From the NCBI GenBank assembly GCA_035693765.1, contig DASSGC010000144.1:1-41872 (forward strand): DNA of 41,872 nt. Reading direction: 5' to 3'. The notes below the pieces were generated by a model. That model saw nothing but the letters and a program-made list of their open reading frames with translations. It ran no database searches and was not told where the DNA came from. Every line of letters starts with the position of its first letter. The stretch's first letter is position 1. Below, piece by piece: positions 5,966 to 41,872 of the stretch. A program made the translations under genes and the position numbers. The stretch comes from Acidimicrobiales bacterium (GTDB lineage Bacteria > Actinomycetota > Acidimicrobiia > Acidimicrobiales > VFJN01).

Positions 5966-6436
5966 ATGGCGAGCACCACCACGAGGGGTCCCGTCCCGGC
6001 CGTCGACGGCTGGTTCACCACCGGCGACGAGCCCGCCCTCCTCGGCACCCGCTGCAGGTCCTGCGGCTCCGTCTTCTTCCCCCGGGAGGAGGCGTTCTGC
6101 CGCAACCCCGGCTGCGCGGGCGAGGCGTTCGACGAGGTGCCGCTGTCGCGCCGGGGGGTCGTGTGGTCGTACACCGACGCCCGCTACCAGCCGCCGCCCC
6201 CGTACCTCCCGGCCACCGATCCCTACGAGCCCTTCGCCCTGGCCGCCGTCGAGCTGGAGGCGGAGGGCCTCGTCGTGCTCGGCCAGGTCGCCGGCGGCTA
6301 CGGCGTCGACGACCTGACCGTCGGCGCCCCGGTCGAGCTGGTGGTCGAGCCGCTCTACACCGGCGAGGACGGCACCGTCCGCACGATCTGGCGGTGGAAG
6401 CCGCTCACGCCCGCCGCCGGGGAGGCCGCCACATGA
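5966..6436 (+). CDS. DUF35 Zn-ribbon/OB-fold protein (thiolase/Ltp partner)
   Basis: ATG at 5966 is preceded by GGGAGGG. It has a C-x2-C...C-x4-C ribbon (CRSCGSVFFPREEAFCRNPGC) and then an OB-fold-like region. Its stop overlaps the next start (ATGA at 6433-6436). Confidence 0.85.
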   Translation: MASTTTRGPVPAVDGWFTTGDEPALLGTRCRSCGSVFFPREEAFCRNPGCAGEAFDEVPLSRRGVVWSYTDARYQPPPPYLPATDPYEPFALAAVELEAEGLVVLGQVAGGYGVDDLTVGAPVELVVEPLYTGEDGTVRTIWRWKPLTPAAGEAAT

Positions 6437-7620
6437 GCAACGACGTCGCCGTCGTCGGGGTGGGGATGCACCCCTGGGGCAAGTGGGGCCGCCCCTTCCA
6501 GGCCTACGGCATCGCGGCCGCCCGGTCCGCGCTGGCCGACGCCGGGCTCGACTGGACCGACGTCCAGCTCGTGGTGGGCGGCGAGACCGTCCGCAACGGC
6601 TACGCCGGCTACGTCGCCGGCGCCACCTTCGCCCAGGCACTCGGGTGGAACGGTGCCCGGGTCGCCACGGCCTACGCCGCCTGCGCCACCGGCGCCCAGG
6701 CGCTCGACACCGCTCGGGCCCGCATCCTGGCCGGCATGTGCGACGTCGCCCTGGTGGTCGGGGCCGACACGACGCCCAAGGGGTTCCTCGCCCCCAACGC
6801 GGGCGAGCGCTGGGACGACCCCGACTGGCTGCGGTTCCGCCTGCTCGGCATGACCAACCCGGCGTACTTCGCCCTCTACGCGCGGCGGCGCATCGACCTG
6901 CACGGCGCCACCCCGGCCGACTTCGCGGCGGTGAAGGTCAAGAACGCCCGCCATGGCCTGGCCAACCCCTACGCCCGCTACCGCAAGGCGGTGACGCTCG
7001 ACGAGGTGCTGGCCTCGCCGGTGGTCGCCGATCCGCTGCACCTGCTCGACATCTGCGCCACGTCCGACGGCGGCGCCGCGGTGGTGCTCACCTCCACCGC
7101 CTTCGCCCGCCGCCGGGGCCTGCACGCCCTGCGGCTCCGGGCCGTGGCCACCGTCGCCCCCTCGTTCCCCAACACCGTGATCGAGATGCCGAACTTCGCC
7201 ACCGACTCATCGGTGGCGGTGGCACCCGGCGACCGGACGTTCCGCGACTCGATCGGCGCCGCCGCCTACGAGGAGGCCGGGCTGGGCCCGGAGGACGTGT
7301 CGCTGGCCGAGGTGTACGACCTGTCGACCGCGCTGGAGCTCGACTGGTACGAGAACCTCGGCCTGTGCAAGCCGGGCGACGCCGAGGCGGTGCTGCGCTC
7401 GGGTGACACGACGCTCGGCGGCCGCGTGCCGGTCAACCCGTCCGGCGGTCTCGCCTGCTTCGGCGAGGCCGTGCCCGCCCAGGCGCTGGCCCAGGTGTGC
7501 GAGGTGGCCTGGCAGCTCCGGGGCCAGGCCGACGGCCGCCAGGTCGCGGGTGCCCGCGTGGGCATCACCGCCAACCAGGGCCTCTTCGGCCACGGCAGCT
7601 CGGTCATCCTCTCGATCTGA
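6433..7620 (+). CDS. Thiolase-fold lipid-transfer protein (SCP-x/Ltp type)
   Basis: MSNDVAVVGVGMHPWGKW..., with a Cys-containing AACATGAQAL motif and a C-terminal NPSGGLACFGEAVPAQAL. It is translationally coupled to the DUF35 gene. Confidence 0.9.
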   Translation: MSNDVAVVGVGMHPWGKWGRPFQAYGIAAARSALADAGLDWTDVQLVVGGETVRNGYAGYVAGATFAQALGWNGARVATAYAACATGAQALDTARARILAGMCDVALVVGADTTPKGFLAPNAGERWDDPDWLRFRLLGMTNPAYFALYARRRIDLHGATPADFAAVKVKNARHGLANPYARYRKAVTLDEVLASPVVADPLHLLDICATSDGGAAVVLTSTAFARRRGLHALRLRAVATVAPSFPNTVIEMPNFATDSSVAVAPGDRTFRDSIGAAAYEEAGLGPEDVSLAEVYDLSTALELDWYENLGLCKPGDAEAVLRSGDTTLGGRVPVNPSGGLACFGEAVPAQALAQVCEVAWQLRGQADGRQVAGARVGITANQGLFGHGSSVILSI

Positions 7621-7634
7621 CGGTGGGCGGGGTC

Positions 7635-7768
7635 AGAGGCCGAGCGGATGGGGCGCTCGCCACGGCCTACGCGTGGGGATTTGGGATGGAAGCACCAGCT
7701 CGACAGCTCGGCCGACCGGCAACGCAGCACGGTGACACGCGCCGGCGTGACCCATCCGCTCATGTTCT
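7635..7768. repeat. Structured 134-bp repeat, copy 1 (candidate ncRNA or REP/MITE-like element)
   Basis: It aligns without gaps to 41605-41738 with 8 mismatches (manual alignment). An 11-bp closing stem pairs GAGCGGATGGG (7642-7652) with CCCATCCGCTC (7751-7761). Internal hairpins lie at 7660-7676, 7693-7734 and 7737-7749. It fills the convergent gap between the thiolase stop (7620) and the MaoC stop (7768). Confidence 0.8.
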
Positions 7769-8232
7769 CAGGCCAGCCAGCGGCTGAGCGACTCGACCAC
7801 GCAGGCGGGCTTGTCGCCCCCCTCCACCTCCATCGTGACCCGGATGGTGGTCTGCACCCCGCCCGGCACGTCGTCGCAGGCCACCAGCTCGGCCCTTCCC
7901 CGCACCCGGCTGCCGACGGGCACCGGCGCCGGGAAGCGAACCCTGCCGGTCCCGTAGTTGACGCCGAGCGAGATGCCCCGCACCTCGACGAGCTGGGGCA
8001 GCACCAGGTTGGACAGCGCGAGCGTCAGGTAGCCGTGCGCGATGGGTCCGCCATAGGGGCTCTCGGCGCGGGCCCGGTCGACGTCGACGTGGATCCACTG
8101 GTGGTCGCCGGTGGCCTCGGCGAACTGGTCCACCTGCGCCTGCGTGACCTCGAACCAGTCGCTGGTGCCGAGCTCGCGGCCGGGCTCGGCGGCGCGCAGC
8201 TCGTCGAGCGATGCGAACACGGTCTGTGCCAT
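7768..8232 (-). CDS. MaoC-like (R)-specific enoyl-CoA hydratase/dehydratase
   Basis: 154 aa hot-dog fold: FAEATGDHQWIHVDVDRARAESPYGGPIAHGYLTLAL. Confidence 0.9.
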   Translation of the reverse strand: MAQTVFASLDELRAAEPGRELGTSDWFEVTQAQVDQFAEATGDHQWIHVDVDRARAESPYGGPIAHGYLTLALSNLVLPQLVEVRGISLGVNYGTGRVRFPAPVPVGSRVRGRAELVACDDVPGGVQTTIRVTMEVEGGDKPACVVESLSRWLA

Positions 8233-11577: not shown

Positions 11578-12398
11578 GGGTCGCCGTCGTCCAGCACGAC
11601 ATCGTCTGGGAGGACCGGGCCGCCAACTTCGACCGGCTCGCGCCGCAGGTCGAGGCGGCCGCCGGGGCGGGCGCCCGGCTGGTGCTCCTGTCGGAGACGT
11701 TCTCGACCGGGTTCTCGATGCACACCGAGCGGACCGCCGAGCCGGAGGGCGGCCCCTCCTCCGAGTTCCTCCGGGCCCGGGCCCGGGAGCACGACGTCTG
11801 GATCGGCGGCTCGTGCCCCGAGGTGCGGGTGCCCGGCGACCCGCCGCACAACACCTTCGTGCTGGCCGGGCCGGACGGCACCGTGCATCGCTACCGCAAG
11901 GTCCACCGCTTCGGCTACGGCGGCGAGGACAAGAAGTTCGCAGCCGGGTCCGAGCGGGTGACGGTCACGGTCGACGGCCTCCGGGTGACCCTCTTCGTCT
12001 GCTACGACCTGCGGTTCGCCGACGACTGGTGGGCCGTCGCGGGCGACACCGACGCCTACCTCTGCGTGGCCAACTGGCCGTCGGCCCGCCGCCGGCACTG
12101 GCAGGCGCTGCTGGTGGCCCGGGCCATCGAGAACCAGGCCTACGTCGTGGCCTGCAACCGGGTGGGCGGCGGCGGCAAGCTCGACTACGCGGGCGACAGC
12201 ATGATCGTCGACCCGCTGGGCGAGGTGCTGGCGTCCGGCGCCGGCACCGAGGCGCTGCTGGTGGCCGACGTCGACCCCGCCGTCGTGGCGGGGGTGCGGG
12301 CGGAGTTCCCGTTCCTCGCCGACCGGAACGTCGACCGGACCGTCGACCGGATCGCCGACCGGACCGTCGACCGGACCGCCGACCCCACCGGTCGCTGA
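11574..12398 (+). CDS. Carbon-nitrogen hydrolase family protein (omega-amidase / Nit2 / YafV-like)
   Basis: GTG at 11574 overlaps the aminotransferase stop (GTGA). The sequence reads VRVAVVQHDIVWEDRAANF...LLSETFSTGF...VCYDLRFADDW (Glu-Lys-Cys triad context). The C-terminus is a DRxV repeat tail. Confidence 0.9.
   Translation: MRVAVVQHDIVWEDRAANFDRLAPQVEAAAGAGARLVLLSETFSTGFSMHTERTAEPEGGPSSEFLRARAREHDVWIGGSCPEVRVPGDPPHNTFVLAGPDGTVHRYRKVHRFGYGGEDKKFAAGSERVTVTVDGLRVTLFVCYDLRFADDWWAVAGDTDAYLCVANWPSARRRHWQALLVARAIENQAYVVACNRVGGGGKLDYAGDSMIVDPLGEVLASGAGTEALLVADVDPAVVAGVRAEFPFLADRNVDRTVDRIADRTVDRTADPTGR
12321..12392 (+). repeat. Six tandem 12-nt repeats (GACCGGACCGTC-like) encoding DRNV-DRTV-DRIA-DRTV-DRTA-DPTG
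   Basis: Read directly from the sequence. They are in frame at the 3' end of the C-N hydrolase gene. Confidence 0.9.
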
Positions 12399-12483
12399 AG
12401 GAAAGTGGTCGTACAGCATCCATCCTCGTTCAAAGACATGCCAGGCCTCGGAAACGGTTCCGGACCGTCCTAGCCTTCCCGGC

Positions 12484-14442
12484 ATGCGGTACAGCGGCGC
12501 TCCGGCAGCAGGCGGCATGGGCCCGCGCGGCTCGCTGCTCGGCGCCGACCCGGCCACGCTCGGCGACGCCCGGTTCCGCGGCGCGCTGGCCCGCCGCGTG
12601 TGGGCCTTCGCCCGGCCCTACCGGTGGCTGCTGGCGGGCTACGCCGCCCTCATCGTGGGCCAGGCGCTGGTCGGGCTCGCCCCGCCGCTGCTGTTCCGGC
12701 AGATCATCGACGAGGCGATCCCCGCGAAGGACCGCGGGCTGCTCCACCTGCTGGCCGGCGTGGCGGTGGTCACGGCCCTGGTCAGCGCCGTGCTCGCCGT
12801 CGGCGACCGCTACTGGTCGGCCCGCATCGGCGAGGGTGTCATCTACGACCTCCGGGTGGCCGTGTTCCGGCACGTCCAGCGGATGCCGATCGCCTTCTTC
12901 ACCCGCACGCAGACCGGCGCGCTGACCAGCCGCCTCAACTCCGACGTCATCGGCGCCCAGCGGGCGCTGACCGGCACCATCGGCACCGTGGCCTCCAACG
13001 CGGTCACGCTGGTCACCGTCGTGGCCGCCATGGCCGCCCTGGAGTGGCGGCTGACCGTGCTCTCCCTGATCGTGCTGCCCGCGTTCATCGTGCCCGCCAA
13101 GCGGGTCGGGCGCCGCCTGCAGGCCGTCACCCGCGAGCAGATGGACCTCAACGCCTCGCTCAACACCACCATGACCGAGCGCTTCAACGTGTCGGGCGCG
13201 CTGCTCGTGAAGCTGTTCGGCCGGGCGGCCGACGAGGAGCGGAGCTTCGCCGGACGGGCCGACGGCGTGCGCCGCACCGGCATCCGGGCCGCGCTCTACG
13301 GCCGCACGTTCTTCATCGCCCTGGGGCTCGTCGGCGCCGTCGGCACCGCCGCCGTCTACTGGATCGGTGGCCTGCAGGTGCTGTCGGAGGACATGTCGCT
13401 CGGCACCCTCGTCGCCATGGCGGCGTTCGTGGGCCGGCTGTACGGCCCGCTGACCTCCCTGACCAACGCGCGGGTCGACCTGATGAGCGCCCTCGTCTCG
13501 TTCGACCGGGTGTTCGAGGTGCTCGACGCGCCGACGCCGCTGGTCGACGCGCCGGGCGCCGTCGACCTCGGCCGCCCGCAGGGCCGCATCGAGCTGGACG
13601 GCGTGCGGTTCACCTACCCCGACCGGCCGATCATCCCAACCCTCGAGCTCGACCCCAACGTCGGCGCGCCGATCGCCCGGCGCGACGGCACGGCGGGCGA
13701 CGAAGGTACGCCGGGCGGGGCTCGCGAGGTGCTCCACGGCGTGTCGGCCACCATCGAGCCGGGCCAGCTCGTCGCCCTGGTCGGCCCGTCCGGCGGGGGC
13801 AAGACGACGCTGTCGATGCTCGTGCCGCGGCTCTACGACGTGACCGAGGGCGCCGTCCGGGTCGACGGTCACGACGTGCGCGACCTCACGCAGGACTCGC
13901 TGCACGACGCCATCGGCGTCGTCGTCCAGGACCCGCACCTGTTCCACGACACCATCGGCAACAACCTCCGCTACGCCCGCCCCGACGCCACGCCGGCCGA
14001 GGTCGAGGCCGCGGCTCGGGCGGCCCGGATCCACGGCGTGATCGCCCGGCTCCCCGACGGCTACGACACGGTGGTGGGCGAGCGGGGCTACCGCCTCTCC
14101 GGGGGCGAGAAGCAGCGGGTGGCGATCGCCCGCATGCTGCTCAAGGACCCGGCGATCGTCATCCTCGACGAGGCCACCAGCCACCTCGACAGCGAGAACG
14201 AGGCCGCGATCCAGCGGGCCCTGGCCGATGCCCTCGCCGGGCGGACCAGCATCGTCATCGCCCACCGGCTGTCGACCATCACGGCGGCAGACCAGATCCT
14301 GGTGGTCGACGACGGCCGGGTGGTCGAGCGGGGCCGGCACGCCGACCTCCTGGCCGCCGGCGGGCTGTACGCGGACCTCTACCGCACCCTCGTGCGCGAG
14401 GACGTCGGCCCCGCAGCCGCCGCGGTCGCCCTCGACGTCTGA
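12484..14442 (+). CDS. ABC exporter, fused permease/ATPase (MsbA/MdlB type)
   Basis: 652 aa. Six TM helices are followed by Walker A GPSGGGKTT, signature LSGGEKQRVAIAR and Walker B IVILDEATS. Confidence 0.93.
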   Translation: MRYSGAPAAGGMGPRGSLLGADPATLGDARFRGALARRVWAFARPYRWLLAGYAALIVGQALVGLAPPLLFRQIIDEAIPAKDRGLLHLLAGVAVVTALVSAVLAVGDRYWSARIGEGVIYDLRVAVFRHVQRMPIAFFTRTQTGALTSRLNSDVIGAQRALTGTIGTVASNAVTLVTVVAAMAALEWRLTVLSLIVLPAFIVPAKRVGRRLQAVTREQMDLNASLNTTMTERFNVSGALLVKLFGRAADEERSFAGRADGVRRTGIRAALYGRTFFIALGLVGAVGTAAVYWIGGLQVLSEDMSLGTLVAMAAFVGRLYGPLTSLTNARVDLMSALVSFDRVFEVLDAPTPLVDAPGAVDLGRPQGRIELDGVRFTYPDRPIIPTLELDPNVGAPIARRDGTAGDEGTPGGAREVLHGVSATIEPGQLVALVGPSGGGKTTLSMLVPRLYDVTEGAVRVDGHDVRDLTQDSLHDAIGVVVQDPHLFHDTIGNNLRYARPDATPAEVEAAARAARIHGVIARLPDGYDTVVGERGYRLSGGEKQRVAIARMLLKDPAIVILDEATSHLDSENEAAIQRALADALAGRTSIVIAHRLSTITAADQILVVDDGRVVERGRHADLLAAGGLYADLYRTLVREDVGPAAAAVALDV

Positions 14443-40264: not shown

Positions 40265-41136
40265 CAGTCGGTGGTGAGCAGCTCGGGGTAGCGCTCCTGG
40301 AGGTCGTCCCAGAGGCTCGCGGGTGCGGCGAAGCGGTCGAACCGGTAGAGGTCGCCGATGGCCATGACGTCGTCGAGCTGGCGGGCGAGCGGTTCGATCC
40401 ACACCCGCACCTCTTGGCGGGGGTGGCGGGCCAGCGGGAGGTGGTCGCGGCGGACGATGCCGGCGCGCTCGCCGGCGGCGATCTGGCGGCCGCAGCGGCA
40501 GGGGCCGGCCGGGTCGACCAGGCCGCAGCGGTCGTCGATGACGTGGCGGAGCGTGCGGCGGGCGCGGGCCACGCGCTGGCGGAACGCGGCGCGGGTGCAC
40601 TCGAGGATCTCGGCGCCCTCGACGTCGGTGAGCCCGACGACGTCCGCGAGCAGGTACGCGGCCCGCTGGGGGCGGGGGAGGCACAGCAGCATCCCGTAGG
40701 TGCAGCTGATGCGGACCTCCTCGCACAGCAACCGGTACTCGGCCTCGTCGATCGTCGTGTCGATGTCGCCCATGCCGGCATCGAGGAGCGCCGCGAACCG
40801 CTCGGCTCCCTGCACCGACGACTCGACGATCCGCTTCCGGGTCCGCAGCAGGCTGCGGGTCGCGACGGTGTACGCCCAGGTCGTGAACTTCGATCGTCCC
40901 TCGAACGTGCCGAGCCGGGTCACGATGCGGATGAGGATCTCCTGGCAGGCGTCCTGGGCGTCGTCGGGGTCGCCGAGGAACCGCAACGCGAGGCGGTACA
41001 TCGGGTGTTGCAGCTCGCGCACCAGCGCCGAGAGGGCGCCGCGGTCACCGTCGGCGGCCCGCTGTGCGAGCTCGTCGACGGTGAGGTCGCCATTGCGGCG
41101 GTGCGCCGCCATGTCTTTGCGGTGGTGCGCCGTCAT
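40264..41136 (-). CDS. ECF sigma-70 family factor with Cys-containing C-terminal extension (paralog 2)
   Basis: ATG at 41136 overlaps the upstream stop (ATGA). Region 2 reads DACQEILIRIVTRLGTFEGRSKFTTWAYTVATRSLL. Region 4 reads QRAAYLLADVVGLTDVEGAEILECTRAAFRQRVARARRTL. The extension begins RCGLVDPAGPCRCGRQ. Confidence 0.9.
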   Translation of the reverse strand: MTAHHRKDMAAHRRNGDLTVDELAQRAADGDRGALSALVRELQHPMYRLALRFLGDPDDAQDACQEILIRIVTRLGTFEGRSKFTTWAYTVATRSLLRTRKRIVESSVQGAERFAALLDAGMGDIDTTIDEAEYRLLCEEVRISCTYGMLLCLPRPQRAAYLLADVVGLTDVEGAEILECTRAAFRQRVARARRTLRHVIDDRCGLVDPAGPCRCGRQIAAGERAGIVRRDHLPLARHPRQEVRVWIEPLARQLDDVMAIGDLYRFDRFAAPASLWDDLQERYPELLTTD

Positions 41137-41432
41137 GCCGCTCCGGTGATGATCTCGCCCCGGCCCACCTGCTCGGCGCCTTCGAGCAGCGCGTGCATCC
41201 TTCCGACGGCGTCGAACGTCGCCGCGTGCTGCATCAACCGCTCCTCGCCGTCCGGGACGCTCCACCGCAGCACGTCGAGCCACGTGCCGTCCTCCAGGCG
41301 GACCAGATCGGCACCGAGGAGCTCGGGGCACAAGCCCTGCGCCTCGGCGATCGCCTCGGGGCGTACCTCCAGCAACCGCTCGACGTTGCCCTCCGGAACC
41401 CGGGCCCGCCACACCTGTAGGTATTCGGCCAT
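41133..41432 (-). CDS. ABM/Dabb-like (antibiotic biosynthesis monooxygenase fold) small protein
   Basis: GAGGAGGA RBS. MAEYLQVWRARVPEGNVERLLEVRPEAIAEAQGLCPELLGADLVRLEDGTWLDVLRWSVPDGEE. Confidence 0.7.
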   Translation of the reverse strand: MAEYLQVWRARVPEGNVERLLEVRPEAIAEAQGLCPELLGADLVRLEDGTWLDVLRWSVPDGEERLMQHAATFDAVGRMHALLEGAEQVGRGEIITGAA

Positions 41433-41512: not shown

Positions 41513-41604
41513 GCCGATCCGCCGTGGAGCGCTCCCTCGGCGACCGAGGTCTGGGCGCCCATGGGCCGCGCCAGCCTGCGCGACCTCGGGCACCGCATCG
41601 AGTA

Positions 41605-41738
41605 AGAGGCCGAGCGGATAGGGCGCTCGCCACGGCCTACGCGTGGGGATTTGGCGTGGAAGCACCAGCTCCACAGCTCGGCCGACCGGCAAGGCAGCAC
41701 GGTGACACGCGCCAGCGTGACCTATCCGCTCAAGTTCT
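41605..41738. repeat. Structured 134-bp repeat, copy 2
   Basis: Direct-orientation copy of 7635-7768 at an offset of 33970 bp. The closing stem is GAGCGGATAGG / CCTATCCGCTC. Confidence 0.8.
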
Positions 41739-41806
41739 ACGTGGGCCCTCGCCCCGGAGACGTCGCCGACGTCGCACACGTCGCTGCGCCACGACGGGAC
41801 GGGACA

Positions 41807-41872
41807 TCAGACCCCGTCGGTGGTGACGTCGGTGGTGACGTCGGTGGTGACGTCGTGAGCGGCCGATCGCCC
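41807..41872 (-). CDS. 3' end of a minus-strand gene entering from beyond the window (only 21 codons visible)
   Basis: ...HDVTTDVTTDVTTDGV-stop, with TGA at 41807-41809. It is encoded by 12-nt tandem repeats and is too short to identify. Confidence 0.3.
   Translation of the reverse strand, partial: GRSAAHDVTTDVTTDVTTDGV
41815..41858. repeat. About 3.5 tandem copies of GGTGGTGACGTC
   Basis: Read directly from the sequence. Confidence 0.85.

Follow-up and report, generated by a model that had tools for sequence, protein, structure and literature searches.

Introduction

The window described here (the whole stretch of DNA that was analyzed, 41,872 nt) carries two copies of a repeat, at 7635-7768 and 41605-41738, which can be drawn as a closed structure of several helices. 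The initial annotation noticed that the few differences between the copies seem to respect this fold and ascribed them to selection on a folded RNA, or on a folded single-stranded DNA such as a REP/IS200-type hairpin. The question raised by the locus is whether the repeat is kept by selection on such a fold or is a mobile element whose ends pair with each other. We consider, with a probability of about 0.87, that both copies are non-autonomous MITEs of a GC-rich family of ~130-135 nt which has spread through the Acidimicrobiia. This family is previously undescribed and belongs to a known type of element.

The Two Copies and Their Boundaries

Alignment of 7600-7800 with 41570-41770 gave a single gap-free block in which 8 of 134 positions differ (7650, 7685, 7686, 7702, 7723, 7744, 7753 and 7763 in copy 1 numbering), which confirms the manual alignment of the initial annotation. 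A repeat search of the window listed the two as a 137-nt pair with 93% identity; neither this search nor the family profile found a third copy in the 41,872 nt. A 94%-identical pair of 134-mers within 42 kb is far above chance. The repeat is real, but its limits had been drawn slightly too wide, as the natural unit is 132 nt long, that is, 7636-7767 in copy 1, where it lies between TCA triplets, and 41606-41737 in copy 2. Named according to the MITE explanation, the features are as follows.

7633-7635, no strand: left target-site duplication of copy 1, TCA; the identical triplet stands on both sides
7636-7767, plus strand: probable MITE copy 1, 132 nt, window-type subfamily; the nhmmer family profile matches 7636-7766, E = 2.5e-22
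7636-7652, plus strand: left terminal inverted repeat of copy 1, GAGGCC-GAGCGGATGGG; the 11-nt core, 7642-7652, is the 5' arm of the stem P1
7751-7767, plus strand: right terminal inverted repeat of copy 1, CCCATCCGCTC-ATGTTC; the core, 7751-7761, is the 3' arm of P1
7768-7770, no strand: right target-site duplication of copy 1, TCA; it doubles as the TGA stop of the minus-strand MaoC-family gene
41603-41605, no strand: left flanking triplet of copy 2, TAA
41606-41737, plus strand: probable MITE copy 2, 132 nt; nhmmer family profile, E = 1.3e-23
41606-41622, plus strand: left terminal inverted repeat of copy 2, GAGGCC-GAGCGGATAGG
41721-41737, plus strand: right terminal inverted repeat of copy 2, CCTATCCGCTC-AAGTTC
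41738-41740, no strand: right flanking triplet of copy 2, TAC; one base off the left TAA

Because the triplets of copy 2 mismatch at one base, its duplication is read as decayed. In both window copies an 11-bp perfect core lies within arms of ~17 bp. The ...GTTCT end of the window copies also suggested an attC-like site, which was rejected by inspection, the family consensus being ...GGTCC and the GTTRRRY core being absent.

Two other repetitive stretches were seen in the window. Overlapping repeats with 9- and 12-nt spacing (TCGCCGGGGTCG / TCGTCGTGGTCG-like) occupy 5-111 at the start of the contig, and a tandem 12-nt repeat (CCGTCGACCGGA-like, ~5 units) at 12316-12384 lies within a long plus-strand ORF, 12205-14442, where it probably encodes a short peptide repeat.

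A Repeat Family in the Acidimicrobiia

The initial annotation had proposed to count further copies in related genomes. A family scan for GAGCGGATNGG, then 90-110 nt, then CCNATCCGCTC was run on one genome per species and gave at least 89 loci; since this pattern prescribed 10 of 11 core positions on either arm, the conservation of the inverted repeats among them is partly built in. About half of the listed loci were chance matches in unrelated taxa, and at least 37 were true homologous copies as judged by BLAST and an nhmmer profile. Such copies are repeated within single metagenome-assembled genomes (MAGs), with at least 17 in MFD09267.bin.1.232, at least 11 in bin.1.261 and at least 4 in bin.2.210, and among the matches listed a single copy each was present in five other MAGs, of which one is labelled Solirubrobacterales and the other four Acidimicrobiia or Acidimicrobiales. 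The 37 copies from the scan, the two window copies and one copy on a metagenome contig (L097) make up a collection of 40, almost all from Acidimicrobiia/Acidimicrobiales MAGs. The host of the window fits this range, since homologues of the MaoC-family protein encoded beside copy 1 carry Acidimicrobiales source names; an exact-protein look-up found no database record identical to that protein. The contig L097 was the only one returned by a metagenome scan for the window-type subfamily with a 23-mer from 7662-7684, so this subfamily is represented by three collected copies.

The copies are 125-136 nt in length and 67% G+C, with a non-coding interior of ~98 nt, and six-frame translation of the subfamily consensus sequences gave no recognizable protein. 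They fall into three subfamilies, A, B and the window type, which have common ends and different interiors. The median identity between subfamilies is 67% for A and B, 68% for the window type and A, and 62% for the window type and B, as against 88-90% within a subfamily, and copies at separate loci of one MAG are 96-98.5% identical, which points to recent spread.

The best-scoring subfamily-A copy (L048:1179-1311) is in a MAG, CAWKFQ01, whose label, Solirubrobacterales, puts it in another actinobacterial class than the remaining hosts, which suggests horizontal spread or an error in binning or labelling. In addition, three copies of another repeat (L019:406-527, L069:568-689 and L073:3037-3158) were found in the Rhabdothermincola MAG CAZGEF01. 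This repeat is close in size to the units of the window family, with 122 nt between the outer core ends. Each of its ends carries the 11-nt core GAGCGGATAGG, its flanks are TNA-like, and its interior has no evident similarity to the window family. The same core around a different interior is expected if a transposase recognizes the ends only, and the repeat may represent another MITE family, which depends on the transposase of the window family or on a relative of this enzyme. Furthermore, the Pirellulaceae MAG CAZVBC01 has a 129-nt element in two copies (L008:605-733 and L046:6626-6754), whose inverted repeats extend over at least 27 bp. Between the ends of this element (GAGCGGATGGGCGCTCGCC...) and the window-type end (GAGCGGATGGGGCGCTCGCC), 19 of 20 positions are identical despite a host from a different phylum; the resemblance may be a coincidence or reflect an IS end with a wide distribution. 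The 11-nt core around unrelated interiors in other lineages, together with this Pirellulaceae match, might mark a widespread undescribed IS clade, though with a low probability.

Terminal Inverted Repeats, Target Triplets and Insertion

All copies end in imperfect terminal inverted repeats of ~17 bp, which consist of six variable outer bases and the core GAGCGGAT-N-GG. The outer bases are GAGGCC or GGAGCC on the left and, read as the complement, GGACCT on the right. Immediately outside the element there is T-N-A on both sides, the wider context usually being C|TNA|G. The flanking triplets are identical in 13 of 35 copies, as against 5.3 expected by permutation (p = 0.0007), and wherever the middle base is informative the repeat of the triplet is direct (TTA/TTA, TAA/TAA, TCA/TCA, TGA/TGA) and never inverted. 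The other 22 pairs differ by at least one base; these mismatches fit decay of the duplication, yet for each copy taken singly, copy 2 included, they make the case weaker. At L029:3422-3692, two members of different subfamilies stand head to head with only a shared TGA triplet between them, and the flanking target triplet of one copy appears to have served as the insertion site of the other.

The window element is absent from orthologous loci. It is missing in L090-L095, whose flanks are 88-89% identical and whose MaoC-family protein is ~90% identical, and in L096; the spacer is 59 nt in L090-L095, and the spacers of L090-L095 and L096 are unrelated to the window element. Similarly, L041 has a copy at a locus where the orthologous L056 has none, and between L055 and L034 the difference is reciprocal, each being occupied at one site that is free of the element in the other. 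No clean empty site, with one TNA, is seen in any of these four comparisons, as the spacers have diverged.

These ends and flanks bear directly on the second proposal of the initial annotation, that is, a REP/BIME-like or IS200/IS605-derived palindrome which a Y1 transposase (RAYT/TnpA) would move in the form of folded single-stranded DNA. The element agrees with it in being extragenic, present in many copies and able to form a hairpin, and the idea of a mobile repeat which folds as DNA comes close to the truth. The REP/IS200 type is another matter, because Y1 transposases are not known to make a target-site duplication and recognize subterminal hairpins instead of terminal inverted repeats. 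The family, by contrast, has ends of 17-bp inverted repeats together with a 3-bp direct TNA duplication, and a unit of 132 nt in place of a palindrome of 20-40 nt, without clustered arrays except for the one nested pair. A Y1-mobilized origin is hardly credible on these grounds.

The MITE explanation would instead involve a DDE transposase supplied in trans. Such an enzyme would bind the two inverted repeats and excise or copy the element, and insertion at TNA with a 3-bp staggered cut would then generate the 3-bp direct duplication. Since the parent IS was not found, we infer the identity of this transposase from the target and the length of the duplication, which are characteristic of the IS1031 group, and of part of the IS427 group, in the IS5 family. 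Provided that the elements are MITEs, an IS of the IS1031/IS427 type is somewhat favoured as their partner.

The search for the parent IS covered several kinds of sequence. Where the collected loci had inverted core pairs 0.6-3.5 kb apart, these were chance matches inside genes (e.g., L078 7033/7847). Two approximate IS5-type probes, which are not database sequences, had no tblastn match in ~0.75 Mb of collected loci, and the long repeats common to loci of one MAG were only syntenic genes, with no parent IS among them. Viral contigs scanned for GCCGAGCGGATAGG gave 120 loci, all of them chance 14-mers, with no nhmmer match to the family and no convincing inverted pair. The best matches in a plasmid BLAST in distant mode, 41 nt in Azospirillum, were set aside as chance, being unrelated non-repeat sequence without a matching inverted repeat.

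Is the Element a Folded RNA?

In the fold proposed by the initial annotation, an 11-bp closing stem, P1 (GAGCGGATGGG at 7642-7652 with CCCATCCGCTC at 7751-7761), encloses a CCACG/CGTGG hairpin, a long interrupted hairpin and a CACG/CGTG hairpin. P1 is indeed present in both copies and closes the MFE fold on either strand. With z-scores of -2.0 to -3.5, the folds of the window copies surpass those of shuffled sequence to a moderate degree only. If the copies were paralogous genes for a structured non-coding RNA (a cis-regulatory 3'-UTR element or an sRNA) whose multi-helix fold is under purifying selection, the closed folds would be accounted for, and so would two of the eight inter-copy differences, which fall on P1 partners. 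A transposable element whose terminal inverted repeats form P1 is, however, the better explanation of this stem, and most of the other evidence also speaks against the RNA.

The element has no match to any Rfam family, a comparison which the initial annotation had recommended: at gathering scores there was none in the whole window, and at E <= 10 only the chance matches CRISPR-DR28, mir-1896, sX13 and isrO appeared in 7550-7850, with 10.7-16.7 bits, far below gathering. RNAalifold on an alignment of 39 copies keeps P1 and six short-range pairs, with a covariation term of -0.19 kcal/mol. With RIBOSUM scoring it returned large "covariance" terms on both strands, which were disregarded because that score also rewards conserved pairs. 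Across the 39 aligned copies, 97% of the P1 cells are paired, a value inflated by the search pattern, which fixed P1. The corresponding values for the interior are 43% for the CCACG/CGTGG hairpin, 56% for the outer seven pairs and 26% for the innermost two pairs of the long hairpin, and 32% for the CACG/CGTG hairpin. With only 26-56% of their cells paired across the family, the interior helices do not hold as a conserved fold.

Moreover, substitutions are not depleted at predicted paired positions in subfamilies A and B: on the consensus fold, subfamily A has 1.38 substitutions per paired position and 0.79 per unpaired position, and in B the two are about equal. Among the changed pairs of subfamily A on the plus strand, 55 are broken, 25 are kept as wobble pairs and none is compensated. 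In the metagenome copy of the window type, L097, changes without compensation break the long hairpin at three pairs, two of them in CACC/GGTG and the third at C7701-G7724, and the last hairpin has a deletion. Therefore, the further copies break the fold without compensation, the very pattern which the initial annotation had set against its own reading, and the copies added to the original two contradict the claim of selection on a folded RNA as the source of the differences.

The two apparently compensatory changes also lose their force when the family is considered. G7702>C and C7723>G become partners only if C7725 is bulged, and the two positions form a standard pair in just 3 of 36 copies. 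G7650>A and C7753>T do affect exact P1 partners. Nevertheless, this pair is the N of the core (position 9 of the terminal inverted repeat), which is A-T in 28 of the 39 copies; in the 11 that vary, two are compensated (G-C in the window and C-G in L047), one is a wobble and eight are unpaired. Uncompensated core changes occur as well in L078b, L029b and L097, which were found without constraining the core. On the other side, the family together with L097 includes all four Watson-Crick pairs at position 9 (A-T, G-C, C-G and T-A), which can be counted in favour of the RNA. The matched G-C and A-T in P1 are most likely variation at the single tolerant repeat position and not selection on an RNA helix. 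The difference most likely arose by descent from source copies with matched ends or by correction between the arms.

The competing hairpin CGAGCG/CGCTCG (7641-7659), from which the initial annotation had conceived a switch, occurs in the Pirellulaceae elements as well as in the window-type copies, and subfamilies A and B lack it, so it is no conserved feature of the family. An RNA gene would in addition leave the flanking duplications and the presence/absence polymorphism unexplained, and together with the gene context described below this makes a structured non-coding RNA highly improbable. A caution of more general use follows from this example: two "compensatory" differences between the copies of a repeat are not evidence of RNA structure when the stem consists of terminal inverted repeats.

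Genes around the Copies and Stop Codons

Copy 1 occupies the whole spacer between two convergent genes, which lie outside the element.

6433-7620, plus strand: thiolase-like gene (Thiolase_C_1, 6.5e-31); its stop codon is 15 nt before copy 1
7768-8232, minus strand: MaoC-family dehydratase gene (MaoC_dehydratas, 1.9e-24); its stop is the right TCA triplet

Copy 2 lies 173 nt upstream of a minus-strand ORF, 41133-41432, and is also downstream of a minus-strand gene with an apparent end near 41808. To the right of copy 2, at 41820-41856, GGTGGTGACGTC occurs three times and reads on the minus strand as a repeated D-V-T-T at the apparent C-terminus of the gene ending near 41808.

A stop codon is abutted by 19-20 of the 40 copies, and most copies are downstream of at least one gene. 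Where a stop is abutted, the neighbouring gene enters the element at its 5' end in 12 cases and at its 3' end in 9, so that the orientation relative to genes has no strand preference, and an RNA with a consistent transcribed strand is not indicated. Scanning of 7500-7900, which covers copy 1 and its surroundings, detected no site resembling a promoter or a terminator, which is a further point against an RNA gene there. The targeting of stop codons as a special property of the element was considered and rejected: in 15 convergent spacers, 10 copies are at stops as against 8.6 expected from the availability of TNA, which accounts for the observation. About half of the copies are on stop codons because TNA sites in the short spacers of 73%-GC genomes are mostly stops.

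It is conceivable that the host has co-opted these MITEs, a long GC-rich hairpin of the inverted repeats in read-through transcripts serving to terminate transcription in both directions, to be cut by RNase III or to stabilize the mRNA. Such a role would add to the MITE explanation and not replace it, and Correia and ERIC elements behave in this way. The position of most copies downstream of genes, often directly at the stop and often in the spacer of a convergent pair, and a hairpin which forms on either strand are compatible with it, and effects of this kind are documented for MITEs (PMC10969869). The abutment of stops does not, however, exceed the prediction from TNA, neither a U-tract nor a terminator-like site is present, and orthologous spacers do without the element; co-option is thus unlikely. 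A more elaborate proposal is that the two arms are actively kept complementary, by hairpin or cruciform correction or by selection on the hairpin, and that the element with its hairpin at the stop codon constitutes, for convergent genes of the Acidimicrobiia, a mobile, orientation-independent 3'-end module for termination or stabilization. Active complementarity would explain the four Watson-Crick pairs at position 9; we regard the proposal as a whole as quite unlikely.

Significance of the Family

The Acidimicrobiia are abundant in soil and water and have been little studied. The family provides annotators with a repeat model (boundaries, core and TNA target), with which fewer hairpins should be mistaken for riboswitches or sRNAs. 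It also marks recent transposition in these genomes, and it points to an active IS5-like transposase which is still to be found.

Comparison with Known Systems

REP/BIME elements, which are associated with RAYT, resemble the window family in being extragenic, palindromic and multi-copy and in their frequent location between convergent genes. They differ in that REPs are units of 20-40 nt without terminal inverted repeats or target duplication, whereas the window unit of 132 nt has both. In eukaryotes, the Tourist-like MITEs of PIF/Harbinger make a 3-bp duplication of TNA (TTA/TAA) at a C-TNA-G-like palindromic target by means of an IS5-related transposase. Because their hosts are eukaryotes and they have no sequence in common with the window family, this is an analogy only.

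Closer to hand are the IS1031 and IS427 groups. The IS1031 group of the IS5 family has the target 5'-TNA-3' and an exclusive 3-bp direct repeat (PMC12016507), and ISLxx6 of the actinobacterium Leifsonia, an IS5-family element related to IS1237, has a three-nucleotide insertion site (PMC2516522). The window family agrees with these groups (ISLrh; IS1237 and ISLxx6 of Leifsonia) in the TNA target, the 3-bp repeat and ends beginning with GA or GG. Unlike these autonomous elements of 850-900 bp with a DDE transposase, the window element has no transposase. The repeat of the window family, GAGGCCGAGCGGATAGG, does not match that of ISLrh, GAACCTGTCTAGTATCT, the only IS1031-group repeat compared, and the link therefore consists of the target and the duplication only.

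Prokaryotic MITEs are less than 500 bp in length, have terminal inverted repeats of ~4-30 bp and direct repeats which decay with age, and give hairpin-forming transcripts; the 2024 review from which this description is taken does not include the Acidimicrobiia in its list of hosts (PMC10969869). The window family stands apart from them in its 67% G+C, as MITEs are typically AT-rich, in a sequence unrelated to those of the prokaryotic families compared, and in a partner IS which was not found. In other respects it is much like Correia of Neisseria, Chunjie of Geobacter, Nezha of cyanobacteria and QMITE1/2 of Coxiella: the elements are of ~130 nt, with terminal inverted repeats and without coding capacity, they are flanked by a short, decaying target-site duplication, they form a stable hairpin as a single strand and occur in tens of dispersed intergenic copies, and they include subfamilies with divergent interiors as well as nested insertions.
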